Assembly (NCBI GenBank): GCA_028714455.1
Contig: JAQTMG010000002.1
Location: 38,047 to 102,046, forward strand
Length of the DNA: 64,000 nucleotides
From: Patescibacteria group bacterium
GTDB lineage: Bacteria; Patescibacteriota; Patescibacteriia; CAIXNZ01
Direction: 5' to 3'
Shown: piece by piece, positions 5,184 to 55,550 of the stretch
Numbering within the stretch: the first letter of the stretch is position 1
How the letters are laid out: each line of letters begins with the position of its first letter
Notes under the pieces: generated by a model
Seen by the model: only the letters and a program-made list of their open reading frames with translations
The model's database searches: none
Told to the model about the DNA's origin: nothing
Made by a program: the position numbers and the translations under genes

Positions 5184-5212
5184 TTGACAAAATCATATTT
5201 TTGCCCTATACT
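5184..5212 (+). promoter_or_regulatory. sigma70-type promoter
   Basis: TTGACA-N17-TATACT. Confidence 0.75.
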
Positions 5213-5387
5213 GTAAAATCATGAACCTTAAAAATATCTCTTGAAAAAGGACAAGGGATTAGAAATATTGACCTCCGGTTATTGTTATTCCCAAACCCAA
5301 GTCGCCAAAAAAAAGAAGAGGCGAGAAAAGAAAGATGGGGAACGGGAACAATAACTCAAACCGGCATTAATTTGCCAAGGAGGTCTC

Positions 5388-5579
5388 ATGCTGAGATATT
5401 CCAAGCTAAGCAAAGAGGAGCTTAGGGAGTTGAAGGCTAAGTCGATGTCAGAAGAGGATGTAAAGAGAATGCGCAAACTTGATGAAGAGACTAGCTGGAT
5501 CCTTTCTATGCATCAAATCAGTGAAGTACACGGCGAAGAACGAGCGTCCGGTAAAGCGAAGCTAAAACGCAAGAGATAA
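5388..5579 (+). CDS. small charged hypothetical protein (SD-class unit)
   Basis: AAGGAGG SD, upstream promoter, downstream hairpin terminator 5591-5620. Confidence 0.7.
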   Translation: MLRYSKLSKEELRELKAKSMSEEDVKRMRKLDEETSWILSMHQISEVHGEERASGKAKLKRKR

Positions 5580-5627
5580 CTTTTGCGCTCAAGGCCTGCT
5601 GTAAAAAGCGGGCCTTTTTTATTTGTG

Positions 5628-5840
5628 AAAATAGGAACTGTAGGAACTACAGGAGCTAAGGGTAGAAAAGGGCTATAAGAGCTGTATGAACTAAAGGCCA
5701 AAATGAGCTAAATGTTGATAGGTTAACAGGTCCTTTTGAACCTTTTAACCTATAGTTCCTATTATCATATAGCTCCCTTTTTCTTTTGGTTCCTATAGTT
5801 CCTATTACCCCTATTTCCATATAGTTCTTTTAGCTCATAT
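5628..5840. repeat. inverted array of degenerate 9-mers (TAGGAACTA ... TAGTTCCTA)
   Basis: Left arm repeats AGGAACT/AGGAGCT/AGAGCT, right arm repeats TAGTTCCT/TAGCTC; related array at 58833-58968. Confidence 0.75.
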
Positions 5841-5892
5841 AATCAAATGGGTTATTTGAAAATATGGGCAATTTGAGGTAAAATAAATACAT

Positions 5893-7464
5893 ATGAATAA
5901 GACAGAAAAAGTAAAAAATCTGCCTTTTGTTTTGGTTATTTTGGACGGCTGGGGTATTGCGCCAGCCAGCCCAAGTAATTCTATTTCCTTGGCTAAAAAG
6001 CCCAACGTGGACTATTTTTTGAAGCACTACCCAAATACGCAGCTCATCGCTTCGGGAGAAAAAGTCGGTCTTAAGAAAAATGAAGATGGAAATTCAGAAG
6101 CTGGGCATATGAATATCGGTGCTGGCAGAATTGTGAAGCAAGATCAGATCATGATTTCGGCAATGATAAAAAATAAAAGTTTCTTCAAAAATCCTGCTTT
6201 ACTTGAAGCGGTTAAGCATGCCCGCAAATTCAAATCAAACATTCATATAATGGGGCTTTTATCAAATGGCGAAAGCGCCCATTCTGATCCGGAACATCTT
6301 TTTGCGCTCCTGGAATTTTTACACAAACAAAAATTTCACAAGATTTATTTGCACATTTTTACTGACGGCCGCGATTCGCCGCCGCATGCGGCTGCGCGCC
6401 TGATGAACAAGCTGATTAATAATTTTAAAAATAGCGAGACCATTTCCACTGTCATGGGCCGATTTTACGCCATGGATCGCATTAAAAAATGGAATAGGAC
6501 AGAAGCAGCTTATAACGCCATGGTCATGGGTGACGGTTTGGTTTCTGATAATCCTTATAAAGCAGTTTCCGAAGCCTATAATCGTGGTGAGACAGATGAA
6601 TTCATTATTCCCACAATAATCAGAAATCCGAAAAAGAACCCGAAATTTATTAGTAATAATGATTCGGTTATATTTTTCAACCTGCGGTCTGATCGAGCGC
6701 GCCAAATCACCAAGCCATTTGTCCAGAAAAATTTTGAGAATGAAAATCCGGGCGCTTTCAAAAGGCATAAAGTTTTAAAAAATCTTAAATTCGTGGCGCT
6801 AACTAATTTCGGGCCAGACCTCGATGATATAAAAAATGTTTATGAGGGCCAGGAACTTGTTAATACTTTACCTTTCGCGCTAAAAGATATTAGGCAGGAA
6901 TACCTGGCCGAGCGCGAAAAATACGCACACGTAACTTACTTTTTTAATGGCGGCCATAATAGGCCTGTTAATGGCGAAATTTGGAGGCAAGTAAAATCAG
7001 AAGGCGCTCAAAATTACGAGACCTTTCCACAGATGTCAATTGTGACTTTGACTGATATAGTTTGCCAGGATGTTAAATCAAATGATTTTGATTTTATTAC
7101 AGTAAATTTTGCCAACGCCGACATGCTTGGTCATACTGGTAATATTGCGGCAGCTATTAAGGCGGTTGAATATATTGACAGTTGCTTGGGAAAAATTTAT
7201 AAAGCTTTAGAGAAAAAGAAAGGCACGCTAATGATTACGGCTGATCATGGCAATGCCGAAGAGATGATGAATATTAAAACACACGAGAAAGATACGGAAC
7301 ATAGTACAAATCCCGTGCCGCTGATAATTATTCATCCAGGTTTAACCAAGAAAAAATTAAAATTAAGAAAAGGTATATTGGGTGATGTGGCGCCAACAAT
7401 TTTGGCGTTGATGGGCCTAAAAGAGCCAAAGGAAATGACCGGGCGATCGCTGATTGTTAGTTGA
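5893..7464 (+). CDS. gpmI: 2,3-bisphosphoglycerate-independent phosphoglycerate mutase, copy 1
   Basis: LDGWG, GNSEAGH, DGRD, ADMLGHTG, TADHGNAE. Confidence 0.95.
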   Translation: MNKTEKVKNLPFVLVILDGWGIAPASPSNSISLAKKPNVDYFLKHYPNTQLIASGEKVGLKKNEDGNSEAGHMNIGAGRIVKQDQIMISAMIKNKSFFKNPALLEAVKHARKFKSNIHIMGLLSNGESAHSDPEHLFALLEFLHKQKFHKIYLHIFTDGRDSPPHAAARLMNKLINNFKNSETISTVMGRFYAMDRIKKWNRTEAAYNAMVMGDGLVSDNPYKAVSEAYNRGETDEFIIPTIIRNPKKNPKFISNNDSVIFFNLRSDRARQITKPFVQKNFENENPGAFKRHKVLKNLKFVALTNFGPDLDDIKNVYEGQELVNTLPFALKDIRQEYLAEREKYAHVTYFFNGGHNRPVNGEIWRQVKSEGAQNYETFPQMSIVTLTDIVCQDVKSNDFDFITVNFANADMLGHTGNIAAAIKAVEYIDSCLGKIYKALEKKKGTLMITADHGNAEEMMNIKTHEKDTEHSTNPVPLIIIHPGLTKKKLKLRKGILGDVAPTILALMGLKEPKEMTGRSLIVS

Positions 7465-10505: not shown

Positions 10506-10514
10506 TTTATCTAT

Positions 10515-14550: not shown

Positions 14551-14643
14551 CCCTTCGACTTAGCTTAAGGCAGGATTAAGCACGGAAATTAGGTAGAAAA
14601 AATATAGAAAAAGGGCTCGACGATTGCGTCGAGCCCTTTGAGT

Positions 14644-15804
14644 TTATCTGGCAGTACAGATGGCCTTTTGGTGATCGTTGATGACGGCCAGGTCACCGCC
14701 CATTGCTGTCTGCAGAGCGTTCAGGGCGCCGTAGATAACGCCGATTTTGATATTGGCGTCATTCTGCTTATCCCTCCAGTTGTATTTCTTGCCATAGATC
14801 TTGATCAGATCGCAGATCAGGTGGTAGAAGGTGTTCAGCTTGTTCGGGCCAGTGCAGTAGACCTTTTTCAGCTTGGCCAGTTCTTCCTTAACTTTGGCGC
14901 GCAGTTCTTCATTCGATTTGAAACGGGGGATAAGCGCTTCTAGCCATTCGCAAAGACCCTCGGTTGTGAATTGAATTTTTTGCGATTCCGCAACCGGTTT
15001 TTGAATCTCAACGAGTTTTTGTTTGGCTTCGGCGCTGTTGGTCACTGATGCTTCGGCGGGTTGTTTGATAACTACTTCTTTGACCTCGACAGTTTCAATA
15101 ACTTTTTGCGTGGGCAAATCGGGCAGTGAAAGGACTTCCAGCTCAACCTTTTCCCCAAGGTCGAATTCTTTTGGCGTTATCTCTTGAAGTTTTCGAGCGA
15201 AGTGGGTATCAATTAGCGTGAGTAGGTAGGACGGCAGTTTGCTCATGCTCTGATGAATGTGATTTTTGAGTTCATCGGCCGAGCATTTGATTTGCCGTTC
15301 GATGAGCAGATTTACCACTGCCTGAAGCTCCTGATAAAAAACAAATTCAAGACGATCTGTTCTGCTAAAGTCCTGCATTTCCCGAGAGTCAGACATAAAC
15401 TCATCGATGAAAGCGCGAATGACCATGCCCCTATCTATTTCTTTCCTGGATTCCGCATCTGATGACTCCCTCTCTTTAATTAACTGATCTAGGGTGTTTA
15501 TCTGACCCCACATATAAAGGTCCTGGTCATCCTCAAACACGCTGGTAAATATGTCGGGGTTGGTGATGTTGTAGCCCTTTAGTAAAATTCCCGCGAGCTC
15601 AAGCGCCTCCCACATAGTCACCCAGCCGCCGTAATTGATAAGGTCTTGCTTAACCTTATCCCAGACGCGCCTGAAAGTATAAATAGCGAGCTTCTGGTCA
15701 TCATATTGTAGATCATTGAGGATTCTAGCGGCGTCACCATCTTCCATCCTGTCGCTGAAAAACTGTCCGAAAAGTTCGCGTCTGCTTCTATTGGTAAGTG
15801 CCAT
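14644..15804 (-). CDS. hypothetical protein (SD-class unit)
   Basis: 386 aa; AAGGAGG SD; TTGACA-N17-TAAATT at 15912-15884; terminator hairpin near 14610-14640. Confidence 0.75.
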   Translation of the reverse strand: MALTNRSRRELFGQFFSDRMEDGDAARILNDLQYDDQKLAIYTFRRVWDKVKQDLINYGGWVTMWEALELAGILLKGYNITNPDIFTSVFEDDQDLYMWGQINTLDQLIKERESSDAESRKEIDRGMVIRAFIDEFMSDSREMQDFSRTDRLEFVFYQELQAVVNLLIERQIKCSADELKNHIHQSMSKLPSYLLTLIDTHFARKLQEITPKEFDLGEKVELEVLSLPDLPTQKVIETVEVKEVVIKQPAEASVTNSAEAKQKLVEIQKPVAESQKIQFTTEGLCEWLEALIPRFKSNEELRAKVKEELAKLKKVYCTGPNKLNTFYHLICDLIKIYGKKYNWRDKQNDANIKIGVIYGALNALQTAMGGDLAVINDHQKAICTAR

Positions 15805-15999
15805 TTTCGCCTCCTTATGCAGCTAGGGTTTATGAACTATTAACTTTTATATTTTAAGGAACTCTTTTGATTCCTGATATACAAATTTATCACAAAATTT
15901 AAGTATTGTCAATAATGCAGATTGTTTGGAAAAAACGGCGGGATTGTGTTTTTTGCCCGATATTTGGTAAAATGTTGATATAATAAATAACGCAAATTT

Positions 16000-16364: not shown

Positions 16365-16922
16365 ATGGACGAGAGGATAGAAAAATTACTTTTGGGGCTC
16401 GAAGAATTAAATAAAGCCGGCGGCCAGTGGAATATTTCTCACACGACTGGCCAGTTTTTGTATGATTTGATTATCGATAAAAAACCAGAAGTAATTGTTG
16501 AAGTCGGCGCTTCCAACGGCTATTCCACTATCTGGTTGGCTGTGGCTGCCAGAAAAATTAATGCCAAAGTCATAACCTTTGAATTCGTGCCAGAAAAAGT
16601 TCGTGATTTGGTTTCTAATTTGCAAAAAGCAGGACTCATTCAATACGTACAAACAGTTCCGGATGATGCCAATAAAAGATTGGGGGAGTTGGAAGAAAAA
16701 ATTGATTTTGTTTTTTTAGATGGCAGAAAAAATGAATATCTGCAACAACTAAAAATGCTTGAACCAAAATTAAATTCAGGTGCGATAATTGCTGCTGATA
16801 ATGTGATTTCACATAAACACGCGCTAGAAGATTATCTTTATTATGTTACCAATGAAAATAAATATCGGAGCGAGCTAAAAGATATCGGGACTGGACTGGA
16901 AATTAGTTATTTATTATCTTGA
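16365..16922 (+). CDS. class I SAM-dependent O-methyltransferase
   Basis: VEVGASNGYSTIWL, DFVFLDG, AADNV. Confidence 0.88.
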   Translation: MDERIEKLLLGLEELNKAGGQWNISHTTGQFLYDLIIDKKPEVIVEVGASNGYSTIWLAVAARKINAKVITFEFVPEKVRDLVSNLQKAGLIQYVQTVPDDANKRLGELEEKIDFVFLDGRKNEYLQQLKMLEPKLNSGAIIAADNVISHKHALEDYLYYVTNENKYRSELKDIGTGLEISYLLS

Positions 16923-16980
16923 CACACTTCAATATAGTTGTTAACTTTAAGTTAATGAGTCACATAAAAAGGAGGGAAAA

Positions 16981-17313
16981 ATGGGAGAGCAAAAGAAAGA
17001 ACCGACTATTGAAGAGCTCATGAAAATCATTGAGGATCAAGGAGAGCAGCTCAAAGCACTTAGGGAAGAAGTGGAAAAACTTAAAAATCGGCCTCCCCGG
17101 ATTGAGGAGCATCACCATCACAACGAAGGAGGCGGAGGAGACCTAGTAATTGAGTATGGTCTGCCCAATGCGCCACGTAAACATCTGATTATTTTCAAAA
17201 ACGGCACCGTGTCCATCTGTGACGGTGAGGAACTAGCTTCAAATCGCATCAAGCAAGCCAAGCCAGGTGAAATTGAAAGCGTTTGGGAAATGAAAAAGCG
17301 GACAGTAAAATAA
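16981..17313 (+). CDS. hypothetical protein with coiled coil and His tract (SD-class unit)
   Basis: TTGACA-N17-TAACTT at 16919-16947, AAGGAGG SD, terminator 17322-17349. Confidence 0.7.
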   Translation: MGEQKKEPTIEELMKIIEDQGEQLKALREEVEKLKNRPPRIEEHHHHNEGGGGDLVIEYGLPNAPRKHLIIFKNGTVSICDGEELASNRIKQAKPGEIESVWEMKKRTVK

Positions 17314-17412
17314 TTGCTATGAAGGGCTCGAATTAACCGAGCCCTTTTTCTTTACAAAAAATTTATTATATGTTAAGTTAGGATATAAATTTGTTCCTTG
17401 AAAGGAGAAAAA

Positions 17413-18396
17413 ATGGAAAGATATATTCCAAAGCATTGCGTTTGGGAAACGACGTTAAGATGTAATTTGAAATGCTTGCATTGCGGTTCAAGAGCAGGCA
17501 AATGTCGCGATCAAGAGCTAAATCATGACGAAGCCATCTTGTTGATCAATGACTTGAAAGAACTTGGTTGCGAGAGAATTATTCTTGGCGGCGGCGAGCC
17601 GCTACTGCGCAAAGATTTTGCCAATTTGGTTTGGCATATTAAAGAAATGGGTATGAGACCCTGCTTGATTTCGAATGGTTTGATTTTGCCCCAGAAAATT
17701 AAATTGCTGGCAAGTTTGCCGCTTTATGCCGTAGCCATTAGCTTAGACGGTTTAGAAAAAACGCATAATTATTTGCGGCAGAATCAAAAAAGTTTTAGCC
17801 AGGTCATTAAGTCGTTTCACTCTCTATCTAATTTGTTTATTGATGTTTATGCCATTAGCCAGATTAATCGTTTCAATTTTTCAGAACTGGAAGATCTTTA
17901 TGAACTTATTTCGCATTTGCATATTGATGGCTGGCAAATCCAATTGACCAATGACATGGGCAGGGCCGAGGATTTAAAGGATTTTAGGCTTAGTCGCAAA
18001 CAGCTCGTTAAATTGGTTGATTTCATTGTCAGGTACAAAAATGGTCCGCTGAAGATTTATCCTGGCGATGACATTGGCTATTATTGCCGCGGCCAATTTC
18101 AATTCCAAGGTTGTCAGGGTGGAATTCAAGTTATTGGCGTTGAGGCCAATGGCAATGTCAAGCCATGTTTAAGCATGCAAAAAGACAACCGATTTGTCGG
18201 CGGAAACATTCGCGAAAAAAGTCTGAAAGAAATTTGGCACGATCCCAATTTCGCGGCCATCAATCGTAAAGCACACAAGCTCGCTGGTAAATGCGCTTCT
18301 TGCGCACATGCCCGCCAATGTCGGGGTGGTTGCGTGGGCACGGTCATGTCATTTGATTCTTTGGGAACTTATCCATTTTGCATAAGGACAAGGTAA
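17413..18396 (+). CDS. radical SAM / SPASM domain protein
   Basis: CNLKCLHC, GGEP, C-terminal CQGG...PC...CASC...CRGGC. Confidence 0.92.
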   Translation: MERYIPKHCVWETTLRCNLKCLHCGSRAGKCRDQELNHDEAILLINDLKELGCERIILGGGEPLLRKDFANLVWHIKEMGMRPCLISNGLILPQKIKLLASLPLYAVAISLDGLEKTHNYLRQNQKSFSQVIKSFHSLSNLFIDVYAISQINRFNFSELEDLYELISHLHIDGWQIQLTNDMGRAEDLKDFRLSRKQLVKLVDFIVRYKNGPLKIYPGDDIGYYCRGQFQFQGCQGGIQVIGVEANGNVKPCLSMQKDNRFVGGNIREKSLKEIWHDPNFAAINRKAHKLAGKCASCAHARQCRGGCVGTVMSFDSLGTYPFCIRTR

Positions 18397-42723: not shown

Positions 42724-42850
42724 CATCTTTCAGCTATTTTATCTTAACCATTTTAGCAAACTTTGACAAGTAATTAAATGTTTAGAAGTTGTTGACAAAA
42801 ATGTGGATTTTGGATAAGCTTTTTTTATCAATAAAGTATAAGGAGGACAG

Positions 42851-43240
42851 ATGAGTGAATGTCAGAATTTGGCCTTGAATTTAAGCCAGGAAGTGTTACT
42901 CGAGAAGCAAAGAGAGGCAAGGAAGCGACAGGAAAAGGTCGGTAAGCTCTTTGAGAAGGCGACGAAAATTCTGCGTAAGGCCGGATACGATGGCAAAACG
43001 GCGCGGGAATTGGTGTTATTCATCACGAACCTGATTGTTCACCTTGGAATATCCAGAAGCAGTTTTGAAAAGGCTCATTTCAAGTTGAGTGATCAGGGCG
43101 CAACGCGCATGGGAAAAAAAATTATTTTCCAGATACTTGATTTGATCGAGGAAGGGAAAAAAAATGGGAAGCTTCTTGAGAAGCTCGAGGTGGAGATCGA
43201 TGAGCTGAAAGCGGTAATCGAAAAATTAGGGCAGATGTAA
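42851..43240 (+). CDS. hypothetical protein (SD-class unit)
   Basis: TTGACA-N17-TAAGCT (42792-42820); AAGGAGG SD. Confidence 0.7.
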   Translation: MSECQNLALNLSQEVLLEKQREARKRQEKVGKLFEKATKILRKAGYDGKTARELVLFITNLIVHLGISRSSFEKAHFKLSDQGATRMGKKIIFQILDLIEEGKKNGKLLEKLEVEIDELKAVIEKLGQM

Positions 43241-43322
43241 TTCTGCCCTTTTCATTTGACAAAAATGACATTTTTAGATAAGATTTTTCTAGCTCTTTTA
43301 AAAAAAGAAAAAAGGAGGAAAG

Positions 43323-44807
43323 ATGATTAAAAGGTATGTTAACAAAAAAATCGAGGAAATCTGGGCACTTGGGAAAAAGTATGAGCTGTGGCTCATGCTT
43401 GAGCTGACTGTTATCAGGATCAGGTGCGCAATGGGTATGTTTCCAAAATATACCCATGAAAAAATTTGTGACGCCTTAGGTGAGATTGAATTTGGTGACA
43501 AGCAAATCGCCGAAATTGCAGAGATTGAGAAAAAGACAAAGCATGACCTCAATGCTTTTATCGAGTGGATAAAAGCACGTCTGCCCGTTGATCTTCGCAT
43601 GTACATACATTGGAAGATGACATCATATGATACTGAAGAAGCGCCGTTTAGCCTGATGCTGCTCGAATCCTTTGATCTTGTAATTCAGCAATGTGATCAT
43701 CTTTGCGACGTGCTTCATGAAATGGTCTATAAATACCGCTATGTGCCCATGCTTGGACGCACGCACGGTCAGGAAGCCAAACTCCAGTCCTTTGGTCTGC
43801 GCGCTCTGCGCTGGTACCTTGCGCTGGATGAAGCACGACAGCAGCTTCTTGATTCGCAGAAAGAAATTAAGCTTTCAAAGCTAAGCGGTGCGATCGGCAA
43901 CTACCAGGGGATCACTCCAGAAGAAGAGGACGCAGTGCTGCGTTCGCTCGGACTCAAGCCTTTTGTTGGCGCATCACAGATTATGCCTCGTATTTTGCAC
44001 CAACCTCTTGTCAATGCCTTGCTTATGATCGTGGGCAGTTTGACTCAGATTGCCGAAGATATCAGAATCGCGGCGCGCAGCGGACTGCCGCTCATGCAGG
44101 AATTTTTTGACAAGGGCCAGATGGGATCATCGGCCATGCCCCACAAAAAAAATACCATCACCTGTGAAAATCAAATCGGCACGTGGCGCATGGCCAAAGG
44201 CTATGGCAATATGCTAAGAGATTGCATGTTAACTTGGGAAGAGCGTGCTATTGAGCAATCCTGTGTCGAGCGTGTTGCCTGGCCAGATCTTTTCCATGTA
44301 GTTATGCAGTCTTTCAAAAACATGGCAAGCGTGCTCGAACGCCTGCAGGTTTTCCCAGATCATATGATGCTGGAAATCGACAACTCGCACGGCTGCTATG
44401 CCTCGGAAGAAGCAAAAGAGCTGCTCAAGGAATTTGGCCTGATCGATGAGGCTTACAAAATTGTGCAGCTCGCCGCGGCCAATGTCCATGAGCATGGCCA
44501 GGTTCTGAGCGATTACAGAAAGCAGCTGCAGGCCAGTTCGGTCGAAGGATATCCGGATATCGATGATGCTGTGCTGCTCGGCAAGCATTACCGAAGTGAA
44601 GAAGTCGACTCGATCAATCGAGTGATCTCGCAGGGCGATCTGCGCCCCGCAGAGGCGCTTGGGCACAGCGAAGAGACAGTCAGCGCCTGGAATAAAAAAC
44701 TCAAGGAAATCTTTGCTGACCCGAAAAAGCTGGAAAAGTGGAACGAGGTTTTTACCATCACCTTCCAGCTGCGTAACGAATCATTTATTTTTGAAACGCA
44801 CAAGTAA
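43323..44807 (+). CDS. purB: adenylosuccinate lyase
   Basis: TKHD, GRTHGQ, SGAIGNY, GSSAMPHKKN. Confidence 0.93.
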   Translation: MIKRYVNKKIEEIWALGKKYELWLMLELTVIRIRCAMGMFPKYTHEKICDALGEIEFGDKQIAEIAEIEKKTKHDLNAFIEWIKARLPVDLRMYIHWKMTSYDTEEAPFSLMLLESFDLVIQQCDHLCDVLHEMVYKYRYVPMLGRTHGQEAKLQSFGLRALRWYLALDEARQQLLDSQKEIKLSKLSGAIGNYQGITPEEEDAVLRSLGLKPFVGASQIMPRILHQPLVNALLMIVGSLTQIAEDIRIAARSGLPLMQEFFDKGQMGSSAMPHKKNTITCENQIGTWRMAKGYGNMLRDCMLTWEERAIEQSCVERVAWPDLFHVVMQSFKNMASVLERLQVFPDHMMLEIDNSHGCYASEEAKELLKEFGLIDEAYKIVQLAAANVHEHGQVLSDYRKQLQASSVEGYPDIDDAVLLGKHYRSEEVDSINRVISQGDLRPAEALGHSEETVSAWNKKLKEIFADPKKLEKWNEVFTITFQLRNESFIFETHK

Positions 44808-44851
44808 AAAATAAGCCCCCGTACCAAGTGGTAGGGGGCTTTTTAGTTTGT

Positions 44852-46627
44852 TCAGTGTTTGGCAAAACCGCGGTTGATTTTGTCGACAAAGATGACTGAA
44901 AGTCCTGTCTGGCCAAAGAGCTCGATGACTTTGGGAAGTTCTTTCCCGTCAGCCACCACCACTCCGCCTTTGCAGCCCGCGTCAATCAGCAGCTCCGTGC
45001 CTTCGCGGTTGTCATATTTGGCAATAAAGAGGCTCAAACCTCCCAGCGTAGCCAATACTCCTTTCGGTTTGCCAACTTTCTGACAATAGTATGCGTATTC
45101 GATGAATTCCCCGTCTGCATTATCAATGAAATCAGACATATCTTCCAGGTTTGGTTCCGGGCTGCTTGCGTATGGGAAAAACGCATCAGAGGCAAACATG
45201 GAACCGTCCGTGTCATGTCCTGCTCGGGTCGCTCTTTCCAGGCAGAGGCGCACGCAAGTGATTCTATCCTGTTGGCCGCAACCGAGCGCGATGAGCGCGC
45301 TGTCCTTGGCCAGGGCTACGGTGTTGGAACTCGCGTTCCAACAGATTGCCCAGGCGATGAGCAGGTTTTCGAGGTCAGCAGCTTCGACGGCTGGTCCGAC
45401 AGATGTCTCGTATGAATCCATGGTTAGGACGTAAGGATAGACTCTCTGGCGCAGGAACCCGCCACGTACCGGCTTATACATCCAGGCGTCGTTCGGCAGA
45501 GTCGGGTTGATCAAGGCCGGGTTGGAAAGTAGGCGCCTTTTTTTGGCTTTCATGAGTTCGCAGGTGTTTGCGGAAAATTCAGGCGCGATGATCAGGTCAA
45601 GACCCCAACGCTCGCGGCCGAGATTGAAATCGGCCGGCGGCTTGTGCAGGGCCTTGCCGAGTTCGTCACTGATAGGGAAGTTGGTGATGACCTCGCCGCC
45701 CATGACAGCGACTTTGTCGCCGATGAGCGCTTTGAAAATGGCTCGTGCCGGATCATGCCAGTCGATGGCCGCACCACATGGGTTGCCGTGTTTGCCGGCA
45801 ATGACGATGTAGGGCACTTTGCCGAAATTCCGGCGAAATGCCTCGACCAACACGCACATAATCTGGAGTACGCCGTTGCCGTCGGCCATGGCAATGTAGC
45901 TGGGATCACCGACCTCGACTTTGAATTTGTCCAGAGCCAGCGGATCGTCATTGCCAAAGGAAAAAAGCGTGGCCGGATTTTGGCATTTGTTCTCGCCATA
46001 GGCCAGATCGAGCGCTTTTTTGCCCACATTTCCGTCGATATCACCGTCGCTGTGATAGCGCGCCGAATCCAGGCAATATTTGGCGACTTCGCCTTCTGCC
46101 TTGGCGCGCAGGCGCTGAATGCTTTCGGGCTTGAGTTCGTTGTTGTTGGCCCGAAGTTCGTCCAGCACCCAGCCTCTGTCCGCCGGGTCGCAGATGACGA
46201 TGCGACCGCCTTTGGCAGCCGAACGCACCATGGTCGGCCCGCCGATGTCAGTCATCTCAATGACCGATTCAATGGTTGCATCTGGCTTGGCGATGGCGTT
46301 AGCCAGCGGATAAAAATCGCAGCAGACCAGATCGATGTAGGGCAGCCCGAGATTTTCCATTTCTTCCAGGTCAATATTATAACGTGCCAGCAGACTGGCA
46401 TGGAGTTCTCGCGAGAGCGTGACCACACGGTGACCCAGGATTGCTTTGCCACCGACTAATTCGGCCACATCAGTGACTTTGAGACCAGCTTCTTTTAGAA
46501 CCTTGGCCGTGCCGCCCGAAGAAAGAATTCTCCAGCCCATTATGCTTAGATCTTGGGCAAACCCCTTAATTCCGGCTTTGTTGAAAACCGAGATCAAAGC
46601 AAACTTATCTCCTTTTTCAAAAATCAT
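44852..46627 (-). CDS. purH: bifunctional AICAR transformylase / IMP cyclohydrolase (divergent)
   Basis: ALISV, SSGGTA, DIGGPTMVRSAAK, YGEN, KHGNPCG, ASDAFFP. Confidence 0.9.
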   Translation of the reverse strand: MIFEKGDKFALISVFNKAGIKGFAQDLSIMGWRILSSGGTAKVLKEAGLKVTDVAELVGGKAILGHRVVTLSRELHASLLARYNIDLEEMENLGLPYIDLVCCDFYPLANAIAKPDATIESVIEMTDIGGPTMVRSAAKGGRIVICDPADRGWVLDELRANNNELKPESIQRLRAKAEGEVAKYCLDSARYHSDGDIDGNVGKKALDLAYGENKCQNPATLFSFGNDDPLALDKFKVEVGDPSYIAMADGNGVLQIMCVLVEAFRRNFGKVPYIVIAGKHGNPCGAAIDWHDPARAIFKALIGDKVAVMGGEVITNFPISDELGKALHKPPADFNLGRERWGLDLIIAPEFSANTCELMKAKKRRLLSNPALINPTLPNDAWMYKPVRGGFLRQRVYPYVLTMDSYETSVGPAVEAADLENLLIAWAICWNASSNTVALAKDSALIALGCGQQDRITCVRLCLERATRAGHDTDGSMFASDAFFPYASSPEPNLEDMSDFIDNADGEFIEYAYYCQKVGKPKGVLATLGGLSLFIAKYDNREGTELLIDAGCKGGVVVADGKELPKVIELFGQTGLSVIFVDKINRGFAKH

Positions 46628-46831
46628 TGTCCCTCCTTTTGGTTTTGATTTAGTTTTCCAAACACTTTATATTTTAACTTTAGTTTTTAGCTAAAGATTG
46701 TAAAGAACCGATGGCTGTACCTTAAACAAAATTTTGATAAATGTCAATGTTTATATTGACAAAACACATTAGAGTTGGTAAGGTCATTTCAGATTTTGTT
46801 CTATAAAAAAAGGAAAAAAGGAGGAAAAAGA

Positions 46832-48289
46832 ATGGCAAAGATCCCAAAGGGGCTTGAGTCCCCGGAATTCGGTGGTCTAAAATTGATTTCAGACGGTAAG
46901 GTCAGGGGCACGTATGTTTTTAAGGATCAACATCCAAGCCCTTTAGTGCAATTGGCGACTGACCGCATTAGCATTTTTAATTTCATCCTCAACGCCAAAG
47001 TGCCACAAAAGGGAGAGATTCTGACGGCTATGACTATTTTCTGGCTGGAAAAGGTGCTGAAAAATTTCAAATCGCATCTTGATTTTTTTGGATCGTCTTG
47101 CGGAATTATGCTGCCTGTCGGCGCATATCGTGAGGATCCCGACTTGTGGAAAAGGGTCTTGATAATCCAAAATTTGATTCTGCCGCCGATTGAGGCCATT
47201 GTCCGCGGTTATTTGACCGGCTCTGGCTGGAAATCGTACCAAAAGTCAGGTGAATGCTACGGCCACAAGTTGCCCGAGGGACTCTGGGATGGAGCTAAAT
47301 TGCCATTTCCCATTTTTACGCCCACGGAAAAATCCGAGGACGATGCGCCAATCAGCCATGAAGAAGTGGTCAAGCGGTTTGGCGGCACCATGGAAAGAGT
47401 GTCCATGCAGGCCTACTGGCAGGCATTGGACTTCGCCATTTCGCGTGGCATTATCCTGGCCGATACTAAATTCGAGATGACCAACGATGGCATCATCGGC
47501 GATGAGGTAATCACACCTGATTCCAGCCGCTTCTGGGATTTGAAGGAGTGGCAGAAACTCGTCGCGGAAAAGAAATCGCCGACCTCATTGGACAAAGAGT
47601 TTGTCCGGAAGTGGGGCAAGAGCGTGGGCATTCATGAGCTTGATCCCAAAAGCCTGGAACACATCGCTCGGGTGGAATCAATCCTTGTACCCACGGACGT
47701 CATTGAGAACACCAGGCGCATCTATCGCTACATTTTCTGGCGCTTGACTGGCAAAAAATTGGAAGTCTTCCAGAGCGAAGTGATGAACATTCCCGACGTC
47801 AGTATGCCCAGGGTCAAGATCGCTATCGTCATCGGCAGCCAATCAGATCTTCTTCAGTGCCAACCAGGCAGGGATTTTCTGCTCGGCCAAATGCAGAGGG
47901 GAAATTGCAACGTTGATTTCAATATCATCAGCTGCCACAGAAATCCAAAAGAGCTGCTCGGCTTTGTTCAAGAAGAGTCGACACCAGATGTTGTTATCGC
48001 CGGAGCTGGCATGGCCGCGGCTTTACCCGGTATCTTAAAATCTCTGTACGTCTCTGGAGGAAAGGCTGTGCCAGTCATCGGTGTAGCCTTTGAAGGCAAG
48101 AATAATGCCGAAACATTGGCAGCCCAACTCTCAATCGAAAAGCTGCCCGGCAGTCCAGTAATTCTCGGTCCGGATGGAGTATTTACCGGAGGGGAAGGAT
48201 TTATGGCTGCTTGCAAGTACGCGCTGGAAAGTGAATTTCAGCCCGAGGCGCCGAAAGAACAGAAGAAGGCATGCCTTCACATGAAATAA
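46832..48289 (+). CDS. purC: SAICAR synthetase fused to a C-terminal PurE (AIR carboxylase/mutase) domain
   Basis: GKVR, TDRIS, ADTKFE, TPDSSRFW, DKEFVR; then GSQSD, SCHRNP, AGAGMAAALPG, PVIGV. Confidence 0.9.
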   Translation: MAKIPKGLESPEFGGLKLISDGKVRGTYVFKDQHPSPLVQLATDRISIFNFILNAKVPQKGEILTAMTIFWLEKVLKNFKSHLDFFGSSCGIMLPVGAYREDPDLWKRVLIIQNLILPPIEAIVRGYLTGSGWKSYQKSGECYGHKLPEGLWDGAKLPFPIFTPTEKSEDDAPISHEEVVKRFGGTMERVSMQAYWQALDFAISRGIILADTKFEMTNDGIIGDEVITPDSSRFWDLKEWQKLVAEKKSPTSLDKEFVRKWGKSVGIHELDPKSLEHIARVESILVPTDVIENTRRIYRYIFWRLTGKKLEVFQSEVMNIPDVSMPRVKIAIVIGSQSDLLQCQPGRDFLLGQMQRGNCNVDFNIISCHRNPKELLGFVQEESTPDVVIAGAGMAAALPGILKSLYVSGGKAVPVIGVAFEGKNNAETLAAQLSIEKLPGSPVILGPDGVFTGGEGFMAACKYALESEFQPEAPKEQKKACLHMK

Positions 48290-48334
48290 AGAATCTTAAA
48301 ACGGCGATCATCTGGTCGCCGTTTTTTCTTTTTG

Positions 48335-48420
48335 CGCGCTCCGTCATTCCGAATGTGATGAGGAATCTATTACTCCAAAAAGTCATAGATCCTTCGCTTC
48401 GCTCTGGATGACGGAGCGCG
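48335..48420. repeat. REP-like stem-loop, family A copy 3
   Basis: CGCGCTCCGTCATTCCGAATG...GCTCTGGATGACGGAGCGCG. Confidence 0.85.
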
Positions 48421-48440: not shown

Positions 48441-50519
48441 ATGAAAGAATATAAACTCAAAAAAGAAAATACTTGCCCGCTTAATTCCAAAATTGATTAT
48501 AAAAATGAATTAAATGAGGAACAATTAAATGTAGTTTTGAATGGGGAAGGGCCATGTTTGGTTTTGGCTGGGGCTGGCAGTGGCAAGACCAGAACCCTGG
48601 TTTATCGCGTGGCCTATCTGGTTGAAAAGGGGATTGACCCGAAAAATATTTTGTTGGTTACTTTTACCAATAAAGCGGCTCGGGAAATGCTTAATCGCGT
48701 GGAAACTCTTTTGAAATGCCAGCCCAAGGGACTCTGGGGCGGGACTTTTCATCACATCGGCAACATGATTTTGCGTCGTTATGCCAAGATTTTGGGTTAT
48801 GCTAATAATTTTAATATCTTAGACGAAGAAGATTCTAAGAATTTGCTCAAAGCCGTGATGGGTGAGATGCAGATTAATTACAAAGAAAAATATTTTCCCA
48901 AAGCCGATTTGATTTTAAACATTATTTCTTTTGCTTCTAATTCCCAGAAACCAATTTTGGATGTGATTACTGACAAATATAATTATCTGGACCCAAAGTT
49001 AATTCCGGTTATCGAAGCTATTGAAAGAGAATACCAGAAAAAGAAGCTCAAAAGTAATGTCATGGATTTTGATGATTTACTGACCAACTGGCTTAAGCTT
49101 TTGAAAAAAGATAAAAACGCCAAGGAAAAATTGTCAGCCCAATTCAAATATATTTTGGTCGATGAATATCAGGATACCAATAAAATCCAGAGCGAAATTA
49201 TTTATGAACTTTCGTCCGCTCACAATAATGTTTTAGTGGTGGGTGATGATTGTCAGAGTATTTATTCTTTCCGCGCCGCTGATATAAATAATATCTTGGA
49301 TTTTCCAAATAGATTACCGAAAACAAAGATTTTCAAATTAGTAACTAATTATCGTAGCTCGCACCAGATTTTGGATTTGGCTAATCACAGCATCGGTAAC
49401 AATTTAAACCAGTACAAAAAAGAATTGCAGACAATCAGAGAGGGCGCGGTTAAACCGGCGCTGGTGCCAACCAAAGATTCTTATCAGCAGGCGGATTTTA
49501 TTTGCCAACGAATTTTAGAACTTCAAGAAGAGGGTGAGTCGCTTAATGACATGGCGATTTTGTTCCGCTCCTCGTTTCAAGTCATGGAAATGGAATTGGA
49601 ATTAAATAAAAGAAATATACCTTATGTCATGCGCGGCGGCATCAGGTTTTTTGAACAGGCGCATATTAAGGATGTGGTGGCCTATTTAAAGATCTTTGCC
49701 AATTTTAAGGATGAACTCTCCTGGAAACGCGTTTTATTGCTTTATGAAGGTATTGGGCCGTCAAATGCCGAGAGAATCTGGCAGGAAGTCATTAAGTACA
49801 GTGATTTGAAAAAAGCCGTGGCCGAACTTCTAAACTTACCGTTTTCAGTCAAAGTCACGCGCAGTTTAGAGCAATTAAATTTTCTTTTGGAAATTTTGCT
49901 CAAGCAGGAAAAAGATTTTATTGCCACAGCCATTAGGCAGATTTTGAAAAATAATTACGAAGATTACATTAAGAATAATTTTGAAAATGCCAAAGATAGA
50001 ATTGAGGACCTGGTCCAACTGGCCAATTTTGCTTTGACTTATGAAAAACTGGAGGACTTTTTGTCTGATGTCACGCTGTCTGAAAGTTTTAAGGGCGAGA
50101 CAGTGGAAAATTATGGAGAGGGTCCCGATGAACAAATTGTTTTGAGTACAATTCACCAGGCCAAGGGTTTGGAATGGAAGCATGTTTTTATTCTGGGCTT
50201 GGTTGAGGGACAATTTCCGCATTACAAAATTTATGATCGGCCGCAGGAGATTGAAGAGGAGCGCAGATTATTTTATGTGGCTGTCACGAGAGCCAAGGAT
50301 GAACTTTATTTAACTTATCCGATTATTTCCACTTCGTATTTAACTGGCACAAATATAAACCGACCTTCAATTTTTGTGACAGAATTAGATTCAAAATTAT
50401 TTGAGGAATGGCGGGTGGATGATGATAACGATTATACCGATGACGATATTGATTATGACGCGGAAAATCCGTTTTCAGGACACGAGTTTCTGAAAACAAT
50501 TAGATATGATGATAAATAA
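48441..50519 (+). CDS. UvrD/PcrA family ATP-dependent DNA helicase
   Basis: AGAGSGKT, DEYQDTN, TIHQAKGLE, EERRLFYVAVTRA. Confidence 0.95.
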   Translation: MKEYKLKKENTCPLNSKIDYKNELNEEQLNVVLNGEGPCLVLAGAGSGKTRTLVYRVAYLVEKGIDPKNILLVTFTNKAAREMLNRVETLLKCQPKGLWGGTFHHIGNMILRRYAKILGYANNFNILDEEDSKNLLKAVMGEMQINYKEKYFPKADLILNIISFASNSQKPILDVITDKYNYLDPKLIPVIEAIEREYQKKKLKSNVMDFDDLLTNWLKLLKKDKNAKEKLSAQFKYILVDEYQDTNKIQSEIIYELSSAHNNVLVVGDDCQSIYSFRAADINNILDFPNRLPKTKIFKLVTNYRSSHQILDLANHSIGNNLNQYKKELQTIREGAVKPALVPTKDSYQQADFICQRILELQEEGESLNDMAILFRSSFQVMEMELELNKRNIPYVMRGGIRFFEQAHIKDVVAYLKIFANFKDELSWKRVLLLYEGIGPSNAERIWQEVIKYSDLKKAVAELLNLPFSVKVTRSLEQLNFLLEILLKQEKDFIATAIRQILKNNYEDYIKNNFENAKDRIEDLVQLANFALTYEKLEDFLSDVTLSESFKGETVENYGEGPDEQIVLSTIHQAKGLEWKHVFILGLVEGQFPHYKIYDRPQEIEEERRLFYVAVTRAKDELYLTYPIISTSYLTGTNINRPSIFVTELDSKLFEEWRVDDDNDYTDDDIDYDAENPFSGHEFLKTIRYDDK

Positions 50520-50557
50520 AAACCCGCCTTTGCAATTAAGCATTGGCGGGCATTTGC

Positions 50558-51247
50558 TTATTCAGGTTTTGGAATATGAACGGGGACTTCGGAGAGCATT
50601 TCGGAAAGCATCCAGCCGGCCACGGCTTCCTTATCTTCATGCGAAACACCCCATGTGCCGAGGAATCCATGAAAGCAAGCTCTTTGGCTGACCTGAACAT
50701 TTTCATCTGGGTTTTTGAATTTCCAATTACTGATATTGCCTCCGCAATAAAAGAGCTTCATGGCATATTCGGTCCAGGGGTTCCTGTGCCTAAACTCGTC
50801 AGGACAGGCTCTGGTCAGAGCAACTTCGTTGGTCAGGCCGCCGAGCGGCTGTGGCACACCTTCAAAAAGCATTTTTTTGTTTTGTTCCACGATTTCTTTC
50901 TCTCGTAGCTCCGCTCTCTTCAGTGCCTCGCCATCGGCCAGGCCGTTTTCTCTTGCATAGTTGATGAAATCAAGGCCGGCGACTTCGAGCAGCTTGTCGA
51001 TTTTGACCAGAAAGATTCGTCTTTTGCGGTTATCTCTCATGGACGTCACGGCATTAAGCTCGTCTTTGTTCACTGCAATAAAAGCAATGGGCGAAACTTG
51101 ATTTGTAACCAGCACGACAGGGAAGAATCCTTGGGGAACGCTTTCCCAGTCCAGCTTGAGGTCAAAAGGTGAGGCAAGCGCTTCTTTTTGGAGCCACTGT
51201 TCAACTGTTTGGTCTGATGGTCCGATCACAAAGTCCTTCATTTTCAA
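50558..51247 (-). CDS. hypothetical protein (SD-class unit)
   Basis: AAGGAGG SD; TTGACA-N17-TAGTAT; C-terminal HEDKEAVAGWMLSE. Confidence 0.7.
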   Translation of the reverse strand: MKMKDFVIGPSDQTVEQWLQKEALASPFDLKLDWESVPQGFFPVVLVTNQVSPIAFIAVNKDELNAVTSMRDNRKRRIFLVKIDKLLEVAGLDFINYARENGLADGEALKRAELREKEIVEQNKKMLFEGVPQPLGGLTNEVALTRACPDEFRHRNPWTEYAMKLFYCGGNISNWKFKNPDENVQVSQRACFHGFLGTWGVSHEDKEAVAGWMLSEMLSEVPVHIPKPE

Positions 51248-51304
51248 TCTCCTCCTTTTTTATTTTGATTTTAAATACTAACATAATATAATTGCAATGT
51301 CAAT

Positions 51305-53049: not shown

Positions 53050-53111
53050 AACTTAATTTTAACATAATTTGTCAAAGAAAAAAGTCCCGCGGAGCGGGAC
53101 TTTGAATTTGG

Positions 53112-53567
53112 CTACATCGCTCGATAAGCCTTAGCGAACTTGCGAAGCCTTTTCAGTCTTTTCTCGATGTTTCTGGCATCTGCCCTGTTCATTTTTAGAG
53201 CGGCTTTGAGTGCCTGTATTTCACCGTACAGAGAATCCGCCTTTTCTTTCAGCGCTATTGCCCAGGCTTCTTTTTCAGTCAGCAGGTCTTTTGCCTGGCA
53301 GTAGTACTTGATATTCTGCCAGTATTCTTTGATTACCTTTTTGTGGTAATCGTATTTCACCATCCTTATTTCCAATTCATAATACCAAACCTTGTTTTCC
53401 CACATCTTGCCGATGATCTTTCCCATCTTGAAGGCGTCGCCCAATTGTTTAAGCGATAGCTCTTGGCGTATTAATCCGATAGATGGGTCGTCGTAGTCAT
53501 AGCCTTTTTGAAAAATCGCCCTGTCTCCGATTTTGAATTGCCGCCTCTTAGCCTTCTTACTCGCCAA
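53112..53567 (-). CDS. hypothetical protein (SD-class unit)
   Basis: AAGGAGGTG SD, TTG start, TTGACA-N16-TATACT, terminator. Confidence 0.7.
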   Translation of the reverse strand: MASKKAKRRQFKIGDRAIFQKGYDYDDPSIGLIRQELSLKQLGDAFKMGKIIGKMWENKVWYYELEIRMVKYDYHKKVIKEYWQNIKYYCQAKDLLTEKEAWAIALKEKADSLYGEIQALKAALKMNRADARNIEKRLKRLRKFAKAYRAM

Positions 53568-53661
53568 TTTACACCTCCTTTAATTTTTTCTTTAGTATAT
53601 CATTTGAAAAATTATTGTCAAAAGAAAAAAAGCGTCCCGATGAGCGGGGCGCTTTTTGATT

Positions 53662-54000
53662 TTACGCTTCATGCCTTTTTAATTCCTTGAGCCTGCCTTT
53701 AGCCAGAATTTTCAGTTCATCGGTCGGGGCATGAATGATCCAGTATTGGAGACGAATCGGGTCGTCTGCGGCGGAAATTGCCTTTTGCGCGGCTTGCTCT
53801 TGCAATTTTTGGTCGCACGAGATCATGCCCACCAAAATAGCTTCTTCATAAAACCGAGCAAGCGCCAGAGCTTTTTTAAGCGCTTCCTCTCTCTGCGGAC
53901 CAGTAACACCCTCGGTCAGTTCGATACACTTGGTAAAATTATCAGCCTGTTCGAGTATGTTATGAAAAGCGGCTATCTCCGGACTTATCTCCGATCCCAT
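53662..54000 (-). CDS. helical hypothetical protein (SD-class unit)
   Basis: AAGGAGG SD before ATG 54000; TTGACA-N16-TAAGGT. Confidence 0.7.
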   Translation of the reverse strand: MGSEISPEIAAFHNILEQADNFTKCIELTEGVTGPQREEALKKALALARFYEEAILVGMISCDQKLQEQAAQKAISAADDPIRLQYWIIHAPTDELKILAKGRLKELKRHEA

Positions 54001-54110
54001 TTTGCCCTCCTTTGTTTTAAAATCTATATCACACCTTAGCAAAAATAGAGATTTTGTCAAGTGAGTTTTTGCAAAAGAAAAACCCCCGCGAGATCGCGAG
54101 GGTTGGGGGA

Positions 54111-54686
54111 TTAAAGTTTGGGAAGCTGTTTTGGCACTGGTTCGCCAATTTGGGCCCAGATCCGTTCCTCTGCTTCTAGCGCGAGAGGCGTTAAACTCGC
54201 CGGAGCATGTTTCACTGCCCCGCGAATCTGCCTTGCGTTTCCCGCTGCCGCTGCCAGCTCGATGAACTTTTTCCAGTAGATTTCGGGAGTGGACAGCATG
54301 TAAAGAGAGTCGTCAAGCTTTTCCATGCTCGGCGCTCTCTTGACGCACTCATCCGCCGCCCGGCGCCTTTTCTCCGCCGCTTTAAAATAATCGTGTTCGG
54401 GGACGTCCTGTCCCGGCAGCATTTGAACCAGCCAATGCCAGAATTCAAATCCAAGATCCGGTTCTTCGTAGTTTTCGAGCAGGGAAAGACATTTTTGCCT
54501 GGCCATAAACTGCATTTTGTCGGTTACGTAATGGCGCTTTGTTTGCTCGTACGCCCAGCGCGCTTCGAGCGGAGTGGTCGCGGCATTGATGCACGCCCAC
54601 AGAGCATTGATATAGGTCGCCTCGAGCTGCAATTTTCTTTCCTCCAGGTTAAGAATCTCTTGCTTCAGCTCATCGAAATTCGACAT
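54111..54686 (-). CDS. helical hypothetical protein (SD-class unit)
   Basis: AAGGAGG SD; TTGACA-N17-TAAGTT (54753-54725). Confidence 0.7.
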   Translation of the reverse strand: MSNFDELKQEILNLEERKLQLEATYINALWACINAATTPLEARWAYEQTKRHYVTDKMQFMARQKCLSLLENYEEPDLGFEFWHWLVQMLPGQDVPEHDYFKAAEKRRRAADECVKRAPSMEKLDDSLYMLSTPEIYWKKFIELAAAAGNARQIRGAVKHAPASLTPLALEAEERIWAQIGEPVPKQLPKL

Positions 54687-54749
54687 TTTTATCCTCCTTT
54701 TATTTTAGGAACAATTGATTTAATAACTTATCAGAAAATTTTCGTTTTG

Positions 54750-55550
54750 TCAACCGCGCGCCATTTTATAGACGTTGGCCAGCAGCATGGCGATGGTCAT
54801 GGGTCCGACGCCGCCGGGGACAGGGGAACGATAGGCGACAACCTTATCAACTTCCGGATCAACGTCACCCACGGTTTTACCAGCGATTTTATTAATGCCA
54901 ACATCGATGATTGTCGAATTTTTCTTGACCATGTCGGTTTTGATAGATTTTGGTTTGCCTACGGCGACGATGAGAATATCGGCACTTGAGCTCTGAGCTT
55001 TGAGCTCTGAGCTCGAAGCTTTGGGCGAAAGGTAAGAAACATTACATTCGCGCATTAACGGTTTAAACGGTTCAGCGAATTTTTCAGAGTTTGATAAAAT
55101 CACAACTTTTTTATTTTTCAAATTTTCACCAGTACTTTTAATCAGTTCAATAATGCCCGAAACCGTCGGTGAAATAATTTTTGACTGCGGTTGAAAGCCA
55201 TCCACGTCTTTTTCCGGCGAAATCCTGGCTATTATTTTATCAGTGTCAAAGTTTTTGGGCAGAGGCAGCTGAATCAAGATGCCGGTAATCTGCTCATCCT
55301 TATTTAAAAAATCAATGACTTCAAATATTTTTTCTTCGCCGCAATCCTCTGACAAAAAATAACTGGAAAATTCAATGCCAACCTCAAGGCAGGCTTTGGC
55401 TTTTAATTTTATATAAAGTTCAGATGAGGGATCATTGCCAATTAAAATAGAAGCCAGAGCTGGTTTTTTGTCCATTTGAATTATTTTGCCGCGAAGTTCT
55501 AATTTAATTTTTTCGGCCAGAATTTTGCCGTCAATGAGTTTGGCTGACAT
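54750..55550 (-). CDS. folD: methylenetetrahydrofolate dehydrogenase/cyclohydrolase
   Basis: LIDGK, GILIQLPLP, EKDVDG, IDVGIN, PVPGGVGPMT. Confidence 0.95.
   Translation of the reverse strand: MSAKLIDGKILAEKIKLELRGKIIQMDKKPALASILIGNDPSSELYIKLKAKACLEVGIEFSSYFLSEDCGEEKIFEVIDFLNKDEQITGILIQLPLPKNFDTDKIIARISPEKDVDGFQPQSKIISPTVSGIIELIKSTGENLKNKKVVILSNSEKFAEPFKPLMRECNVSYLSPKASSSELKAQSSSADILIVAVGKPKSIKTDMVKKNSTIIDVGINKIAGKTVGDVDPEVDKVVAYRSPVPGGVGPMTIAMLLANVYKMARG

Follow-up and report, generated by a model that had tools for sequence, protein, structure and literature searches.

The locus raises the question of why a genome whose ribosomal, glycolytic and replication genes have no Shine-Dalgarno (SD) sequence should carry, scattered among them, single genes with strong SDs, and of what reads those genes. 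The window, the whole 64,000-nt stretch analysed here (G000:C2:38047-102046; contig JAQTMG010000002.1), lies inside the 893-kb, 16-contig genome of a Patescibacteria group bacterium (G000; GCA_028714455.1), rated 100% complete. A first-pass annotation of the window had listed 22 such starts and taken them for a second, uniform expression grammar, namely self-contained promoter-SD-terminator units, mostly orphans, that form a regulon or a cassette system. Two gene grammars were found in the genome, that of a core without SDs and that of about 150 accessory units, each standing alone and led by AGGAGG. The units belong to a real, family-wide system; its parts are of known kinds, and no description of their arrangement was found.

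Two gene classes in the genome

The 897 genes of G000 were called with its own hexamer model, and the class counts carry some calling noise (rodA and murG, for example, are false SD calls). An SD-aware search gave 152 GGAGG-led open reading frames (ORFs), about one in six of the called genes, all non-ribosomal, so that strong SDs are not confined to rpsU or to ribosomal genes; 685 SD-less genes served as the comparison set. With start calls made blind to the SD, AGGAGG peaked at -15 to -9 (69 genes), against at most two genes per position elsewhere, and the SD spacing of the 152 ORFs was mostly 4-9 nt. SD energy is bimodal across the genome, and the SD class is tied genome-wide to orphan status, promoter type and terminators, as expected of the distinct and uniform second grammar that had been proposed.

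Among genes with free upstream DNA, an exact TTGACA promoter precedes 66/117 units and 27/375 SD-less genes. Terminators follow 114/131 units and 164/428 SD-less genes, and the downstream neighbour is convergent for 71/152 and 116/685, respectively. The -10 element of the units is TGnTAA(A/G)nT-like, while core promoters are TATAAT/TAAAAT-like. Core gene starts are A/U-rich with U at -1, and 71/685 SD-less genes look leaderless, compared with 26-50 at control offsets. Unit proteins are shorter (median 125 vs 253 aa), and their G+C content at third codon positions (GC3) is higher (0.54 vs 0.43). Synonymous codon use alone separates the classes (area under the curve, AUC, 0.92). Strand bias was ruled out as the source of this codon dialect, the offset being present on both strands; in a test for high-expression bias, the ribosomal cluster and the class diverged in their codons for Phe, Ile, Asn and Asp, and no such difference was seen for Tyr, Lys and Glu. 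No Pfam family was assigned to 70/87 SD-led ORFs (four of them not GGAGG), compared with 16/75 genes drawn randomly from 295 SD-less ones; for proteins of at least 100 aa the proportions were 36/50 and 12/63, and 31/43 further SD-led ORFs likewise lacked a family.

A more ordinary view is that accessory genes, being monocistronic, have to bring a full set of signals where operon genes rely on coupling, or that the units are read by ribosomes from a hidden second rRNA operon whose tail is canonical. Free upstream DNA is indeed commoner for the units (117/152 vs 375/685). The contrast nevertheless remains among genes with such DNA, and SD-less monocistronic core genes are already common in G000. 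Taken with the rRNA evidence given below, either version of this ordinary explanation is extremely improbable.

The annotated members of the class include purF, purD, purC-E, purB, purH, pyrF, Ppnp and a PnuC-like transporter; shikimate dehydrogenase-like and PALP enzymes, PhoH2, HD hydrolases and two helicases; radical SAM proteins, a reverse transcriptase, SLT and M23; and SD-led DksA-, ParB- and alpha-CTD-domain proteins, with which SD-less DksA and ParB paralogues coexist. The genes purM, purL and prs were not found in G000. In relatives purM/purL and prs are patchy and SD-led at 6/8 loci, with two ordinary prs genes SD-less. Seven dispersed SD-led paralogues (G000 C1:183484, C2:34843, C3:51239, C4:1512, C5:32240, C5:47649 and C5:53467) encode proteins of mostly ~230 aa with a variable C-terminus recalling targets of diversity-generating retroelements, and most copies have a common terminator. 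G000 also has an SD-led reverse transcriptase (C3:83864) and a bAvd-like gene (L045:18725); a template repeat for the seven-paralogue family was not found by the template test used. A tandem duplication with 512-bp spacing at G000:C1:153392-154126 has two short GGGGG-led ORFs per copy.

Signals of the window units

Each of the 22 listed starts proved to be a genuine ORF start, preceded by an SD at a distance of 4-9 nt (19 GGAGG; two GGGGG, at 32307 and 40507; one AGGAGA, at 17413). The first-pass annotation was right about promoters and terminators for most of them. A -35/-10 pair lies upstream of 19/22, with none for 5388, 27504 and 27673. The GC hairpin terminator is clear for 20/22, only weak at 17413 and missing at 27504; a hairpin with U-tract of -13 kcal/mol or stronger follows 18 of these starts, to which 42851 (hairpin 43228-43249) and 27673 are added. 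Most units hold a single gene, except that 27504 and 27673 make a two-gene unit. The core genes are SD-less as described: the 14 checked (pgk, eno, two gpmI, rplJ, rplL, rplU, mraZ, recR, dnaB, uvrD, glyA, folD and murC) have SD energies of 0 to -7. TTGACA promoters were also found at core genes, far less often than at SD-led units. The orphan character of the class was borne out (no Pfam family in 16/22 SD genes vs 8/53 other window genes, p=3e-6), and there is no integrase by Pfam among the 75 window proteins. The units and their flanking repeats, compared with the relatives G001 and G002, are as follows.

5388..5623, + strand: 63-aa orphan with AGGAGG SD and terminator, downstream of eno; no own promoter found
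14605..15912, - strand: unit with TTGACA-17-TAAATT, AGGAGG, 386-aa orphan (14644-15804) and terminator; an atlas protein search with this orphan gave no usable match
16919..17352, + strand: unit with promoter, AGGAGG, 110-aa orphan (16981-17313) and terminator adjoining the next -35; not at this site in G002
17351..18413, + strand: unit with radical SAM/SPASM protein (17413-18396), AGGAGA SD and weak terminator; not at this site in G002
21116..22760, + strand: unit with PIN-PhoH protein (PhoH2, 21220-22722); syntenic orthologues in G001 and G002 (36% identity) keep AGGAGG, and the best database relatives are ~40% identical, with no close donor
27504..27932, + strand: pair of short SD-led ORFs, one of 62 aa with two CxxC motifs and the other an 80-aa orphan, with one common downstream hairpin; no own promoter found
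31592..32076, + strand: unit with promoter, SD, 124-aa protein (31652-32026; weak PF09956 match) and terminator; syntenic in G001
32212..32778, + strand: unit with 146-aa orphan (32307-32747) and GGGGG-type SD; the G001 and G002 orthologues have AGGAGG
32779..33039, + strand: unit with 59-aa orphan (32830-33009), its -35 immediately after the preceding terminator
37819..37857, + strand: left-hand member of a pair of identical 39-nt direct repeats (a hairpin repeat and TTGACA) that enclose the 37919 and 38715 block
37852..39184, + strand: two tandem units with 208-aa (37919) and 144-aa (38715) orphans, each with promoter, SD and terminator; not at this site in G002
39218..39256, + strand: right copy of the 39-nt repeat; the promoter of SD-less rplU takes its -35 from the TTGACA of this copy
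40445..41235, + strand: two tandem units with 35-aa (40507) and 149-aa (40749) orphans, between recR and dnaB; not at this site in G002
42792..43267, + strand: unit with 129-aa orphan (42851-43240) and a 12-nt repeat on both sides beginning at two -35 boxes (42792, 43256); not in G002, where the first -35 directly serves purB
43256..44847, + strand: unit with purB-like lyase (43323-44807), whose nearest relative among the collected genomes carries the label Candidatus Falkowbacteria; bidirectional terminator common with purH
44805..46704, - strand: unit with purH (44852-46627), present in 8/13 family genomes with the SD kept
46756..48335, + strand: unit with purC-purE fusion (46832-48289); G002 has a different SD-led ORF in the same slot
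50515..51303, - strand: unit with 229-aa orphan (50558-51247)
53075..54753, - strand: three-unit tandem array with orphans of 151 (53567), 112 (54000) and 191 aa (54686), each terminator adjoining the next -35; the 54000 and 54686 orphans are syntenic in G001 with the SD kept, and the 191-aa orphan found only itself among 111 candidates in a search of 5.8 billion proteins

Copies of the GC-rich hairpin repeat family (window 37793-37857 and 39192-39256) adjoin -35 boxes, and related repeats occur in several unit leaders, ending in GGAGG-like letters.

Spread, conservation and turnover

Each of the 14 genomes of the family, G000 included, has 18-49 occurrences of the exact promoter-AGGAGG-ATG pattern, and reversed-pattern controls have none; other members of the taxonomic class have 0-11, except G026 (28) and G056 (35). 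The AGGAG(not G) variant counted 60 in the family vs 424 for AGGAGG; in G060 and G048 the variant prevails. Partial samples of G001, G026, G056 and G060 showed SD-led units, an SD only rarely at long genes, and a unit GC3 higher by 0.02-0.08.

Turnover was followed in G001 (612 of about 900 kb covered), with conservation counts restricted to units with both flanks mapped, and in G002. Only 27/67 units have the same location in G001, compared with 248/295 core genes. The seven units at 16981, 17413, 37919, 38715, 40507, 40749 and 42851 are missing from G002, where short gaps remain. Among six junction pairs in G002, two have repeats ending or starting at the -35, one is a slot replacement and three have no clear repeat. 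Units are thus gained or lost singly, as the synteny check proposed beforehand had asked. Where units are shared, they are old: over 389 kb of G001, silent sites are equally saturated (pS 0.78 in shared units vs 0.74 in core genes), protein divergence is higher in units (pN 0.34 vs 0.14), and unit GC3 follows the resident genome (0.55 in G000, 0.40 in G001). Among 41 unit orthologues in G001, GGAGG is present in 31, another GGAG in two, and eight were not called, while 308/311 core orthologues have none. Apart from the SD, unit leaders are unalignable by eye between orthologues.

These data speak against the suggestion that single-gene modules had been acquired recently with their signals, since silent sites are saturated, GC3 tracks the resident genome and the SD is kept amid diverged leaders. 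Recent horizontally acquired islets found no support either: there was no donor-like composition, no close outside homologue and no decaying signal. No recombinase-driven cassette system was seen. Integron cassettes were not indicated, with no integrase in the window, no attC in the Rfam scan, and units that are dispersed and have promoters. A single mobile element behind all units was rejected, flank similarity being confined to shared junctions and a few repeat families, and the units lie among core chromosomal genes, not in a phage or prophage location.

A related explanation treats the units as portable morons, whose signals are a by-product of a gene pool shared with phages and canonical-tail Patescibacteria and which turn over before the signals decay. 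The low positional conservation in G001, the junction repeats and slot swaps, the look-alike clusters of the seven-paralogue family in phages and the canonical 16S rRNA tail in most members of the taxonomic class (18/21 read) are all in line with it. However, it is weakened by SD conservation in saturated orthologues with diverged leaders and by the resident GC3; in addition, PhoH2 has no close donor, and no viral contig was found for the seven-paralogue family with the query used. On balance this explanation is improbable.

The 16S rRNA tail and rpsU

The 16S rRNA tail could be read at 29/30 loci. It is GACCAUCUCCUUU (variant UCUCC) in 8/8 family genomes read and canonical in 18/21 others; similar C-to-U changes were observed in G019, G031 and G033. 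The rpsU gene (G000:C4:22262) has AAAGGAGAUGG, a perfect 11-nt match to the tail of its own 16S rRNA. Its SD is GGAGA in 9/9 family genomes (GGAGAU in eight) vs 0/20 outgroups, the canonical-type GGUG being found in 18 of the latter; for G031 and G033 this co-variation is less clear-cut. The divergent bS21 of this genus was missed by Pfam (G000:C4:22262, L193:2262-2480; G000:C1:73483-74980). Since the rpsU SD has co-varied with the variant tail, that tail is functional and selects A there.

The units behave otherwise. At the diagnostic position their SDs have G:A = 152:16, though A pairs better with the genome's own tail (-10.5 vs -9.3), and the bias is strong relative to the non-coding background (p=1e-22). 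When the SDs were compared with the genome's own anti-SD, as had been proposed, the class fitted the canonical anti-SD better than its own tail. Because the class kept G while the own tail favours A, its SD has likely been selected by something with canonical CCUCC. The prfB frameshift SD, sought as an extra control, was not found in G000. A CsrA regulon was ruled out, the csrA gene (PF02599) being present in 0/5 genomes.

A second rRNA type was also considered as the partner. Partial second 16S rRNA genes with a canonical tail occur in the bins of G001 (L109, G001:C7) and G033 (L112, G033:C12), which would suit the hidden-operon version of the ordinary explanation. The extra contig of G001 is probably a bin contaminant (16S ~85% identical, proteins 39-51% identical to this genus), and G000 has a single 16S rRNA gene, within a long contig; a second rRNA type reading the units was therefore rejected.

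The partner could instead be the ribosome itself in two states, mature ribosomes hiding the anti-SD and bS21-less ribosomes reading all SD-led mRNAs, with G-U wobble sufficient and the small RNA described below doing something else. The extended, co-varying rpsU SD is the hallmark described for Flavobacteriales in the accessible text of PMC7797042 and PMC13000453. Moreover, AGGAGA of the own type is depleted within core coding sequences (113 observed vs 191 expected), so the own tail probably touches mRNA. Such a switch gives no reason for the G:A ratio in A-rich leaders where A pairs better, nor for the G kept in diverged orthologues, and the Bacteroidetes bS21 signature appears to be absent. 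It is distinctly unlikely on its own; both it and the moron explanation fail because the G is conserved.

A conserved RNA with a CCUCCU loop

A candidate partner, located outside the window as rpsU is, is a ~140-nt structured RNA gene at G000:C4:15703-15846 (L165:1501-1644), divergent from dprA and preceded by a TTGACA-17-TATAAT promoter. Its predicted fold is a three-way junction, and no Rfam family matches it. A 16-seed model found the RNA in 35/61 genomes of the search panel, including 12/13 of the family and 19 that were not seeds; in G060 it was found with filters off, and G035 has two copies. CCUCCU is present in 32/32 aligned matches, an invariance that is partly by construction, the model having been seeded with CCUCC-bearing sequences, and 30/32 base pairs show compensatory change vs 0/500 shuffles. 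By predicted pairing, 119/129 class leaders bind better to the RNA loop than to the own tail (medians -13.6 vs -9.6). For rpsU the order is reversed (-9.1 with the loop vs -17.6 with the own tail).

Proposed regulation and its main rival

These patterns would be best accommodated by an SD-gated accessory translational regulon that is masked by the CCUCCU-loop RNA and from which rpsU escapes; we give this reading a probability of roughly 40%. The RNA would keep the units masked until it is removed or out-titrated. The cell's own ribosome may still read unit SDs through G-U wobble, and hence the ribosome-type spacing of 4-9 nt. The G would be kept because the C of the RNA must pair with it, and a change to A would escape control. 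The perfect 11-nt SD of rpsU could serve Flavobacterium-like autoregulation and, as GGAGAU, would evade the RNA. Lacking an SD, core genes would be immune, which might let a single RNA serve as a global switch and also mute incoming SD-led DNA. Recombination at flanking core genes and at terminator/-35 sequences that the units have in common would bring units in, remove them or exchange them, in the manner of the phage PeSL modules.

Several observations weigh against this regulon. Pairing beyond the 6-nt core shows no co-variation between RNA loop flanks and unit SDs across lineages. G060 has the RNA, yet only 6/20 of its units are GGAGG; other genomes with the RNA contain few exact-pattern units, and the RNA was not found in 26/61 genomes, some of them with units. 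The lowest-energy fold pairs the CCUCC motif internally in 10/32 matches, including that of G000, and the seeding of the model takes some force from the invariant loop. Anti-SD occlusion in Bacteroidetes goes with a bS21 that has a less basic C-terminus (an acidic tail) and Tyr54, and with pocket residues of bS18 and bS6; here the C-terminus of bS21 is basic and, judged by eye, there is no Tyr at the equivalent position, so that the bS21 part of this signature appears to be absent. The incomplete purine pathway is left unexplained.

That last gap would be accounted for if the units were written for another cell. Patescibacteria would then carry a dispersed, virus-like take-over programme of ~150 genes, intended for the canonical ribosomes (perhaps also the RNA polymerase) of a bacterial host, which reach its cytoplasm as DNA or mRNA and are silenced at home by the anti-SD RNA and the drifted 16S tail. 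This is rather unlikely, although much in the class fits it. The own 16S tail is tracked by the rpsU SD and not by the class SDs; the units are self-contained with universal signals; and purF, purD, purC-E, purB, purH and pyrF without purM, purL and prs resemble host supplementation, other subsets being SD-led in relatives (draft genomes can, however, miss genes). The SD-led genes that duplicate or mimic DksA, ParB and RNA polymerase alpha-CTD, the HD hydrolases, PhoH2, SLT and M23, the fast evolution, the codon dialect and the lineage-specific SD style point the same way. Against this, a transfer route is needed, and most Patescibacteria type IV secretion systems are without a relaxase according to the accessible text of PMC12102498. 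Promoters of this type also serve rpsU and the small RNA in the genome itself, and unit GC3 tracks the resident genome. Missing Lgt, considered as a sign of host processing, was discarded, for Lgt is present, with lipoboxes in both classes.

Lineages with code 25 offered a check of such a payload. Among 46 metagenome loci, 37 were recoded (250 kb, mostly ribosomal operons), and they held one unit-like gene, with 0 TGA among 7 Gly (about 1-in-8 by chance); no recoded genome is listed in two overlapping phylum samples (151 and 71 genomes). In the recoded (UGA=Gly) contigs (L257, L279 and L287), one ribosomal-operon gene has a conserved AAGGAG despite an in-frame TGA, and L287:10590(-) is a TGA-free SD-led orphan.

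Comparison with known systems

C-rich anti-SD small RNAs (RsaE/RoxS, cuckoo/CcsR and 6C) are known in other bacteria. As in those, a structured RNA here displays an SD-complementary CCUCCU. The RNA, with its predicted targets, differs in having no Rfam match, a three-way junction and an SD-less genome in which it could single out one gene class. Phage take-over and auxiliary metabolic genes are typically small, fast-evolving ORFans with strong universal signals, and include phoH, partial pur/pyr pathways and proteins directed at RNA polymerase. The units share these features but are vertically inherited chromosomal genes of a cell. Phage morons are comparable in that composite signals bound single ORFans.

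A close published parallel is found in the PeSL modules of T4-like phages, in which terminator, sigma70 promoter and SD bound single ORFans and recombine between elements (accessible text of PMC2839356 and PMC4122927). Here too these three signals bound single ORFans, with insertion, deletion and replacement seen and, at some junctions, repeats that fit crossovers in the elements. Unlike PeSL, the units are scattered among core genes of a cellular chromosome, their elements are mostly non-homologous beyond the consensus, and their neighbours use another initiation grammar. SD-poor translation and rpsU autoregulation are described for Bacteroidia and Flavobacteriales in the available parts of PMC7797042, PMC9976891 and PMC13000453. 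G000 resembles them in its SD-less core with A/U-rich leaders and in the extended rpsU SD, with a variant anti-SD and the compensatory 11-nt match. In those groups, however, rpsU is nearly the sole SD gene, whereas here ~150 more genes have strong SDs that have not co-varied; the bS21 occlusion signature of Bacteroidia appears to be absent here and the CCUCCU-loop RNA is present.

In what is accessible of PMC9297842, the canonical motif is missing in about half of Parcubacteria and no SD helix is supposed to form in these, a suggestion that does not hold for this family. The available text of PMC10783764 lists a few Candidate Phyla Radiation members with variant tails, and that of 10.1101/2022.03.25.485537 and PMC11452946 added nothing decisive. 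No paper describing the gene class, the RNA or the rpsU co-variation in Patescibacteria was found in the literature searched; supplementary tables may list the family's tail, and most subscription papers lay outside the search.

Other features of the window and genome

The window contains two tandem BPG-independent phosphoglycerate mutase (gpmI) genes (5893-9131), tandem in G002 too, a Clp-type AAA protein with a long N-terminal extension (33428-36166), a glycosyltransferase-4 (MraY-like) protein fused to DUF192 (36168-37751) and an SD-less cyclodipeptide synthase-like gene (PF16715; 63314-64000). NiFe hydrogenase subunits (L050:10859-18057, G000:C2) adjoin the window, which itself has a HypA-like gene (736-990). 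Elsewhere on C2 an SD-less gene encodes a 2143-aa Rhs protein with an Ntox44 tip (L049:9-6437). A tRNA-Gly(TCC)/tRNA-Pro(TGG) pair is present twice (G000:C1 5470-5642 and 72230-72388), and tRNA-Ile(TAT) lies on C11.

Significance

How Patescibacteria regulate their genes and act on hosts with tiny, orphan-rich genomes is a standing question. A simple sequence signature sorts about one-sixth of the genes of G000, mostly dark matter, into one class, and these mostly unknown genes are likely a separately switched programme. The variant 16S tail, with rpsU following it, the class not following and an RNA matching the class, offers a direct test. Under either reading, the co-variation of rpsU and anti-SD described for Flavobacteriales is now found in a second lineage. 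If the units were read in a host, the SD would mark genome-wide which genes act inside it, and the class would be a ready list. If the regulon exists as proposed, one RNA would gate a whole accessory programme through its ribosome-binding sites, which only an SD-less genome would allow.

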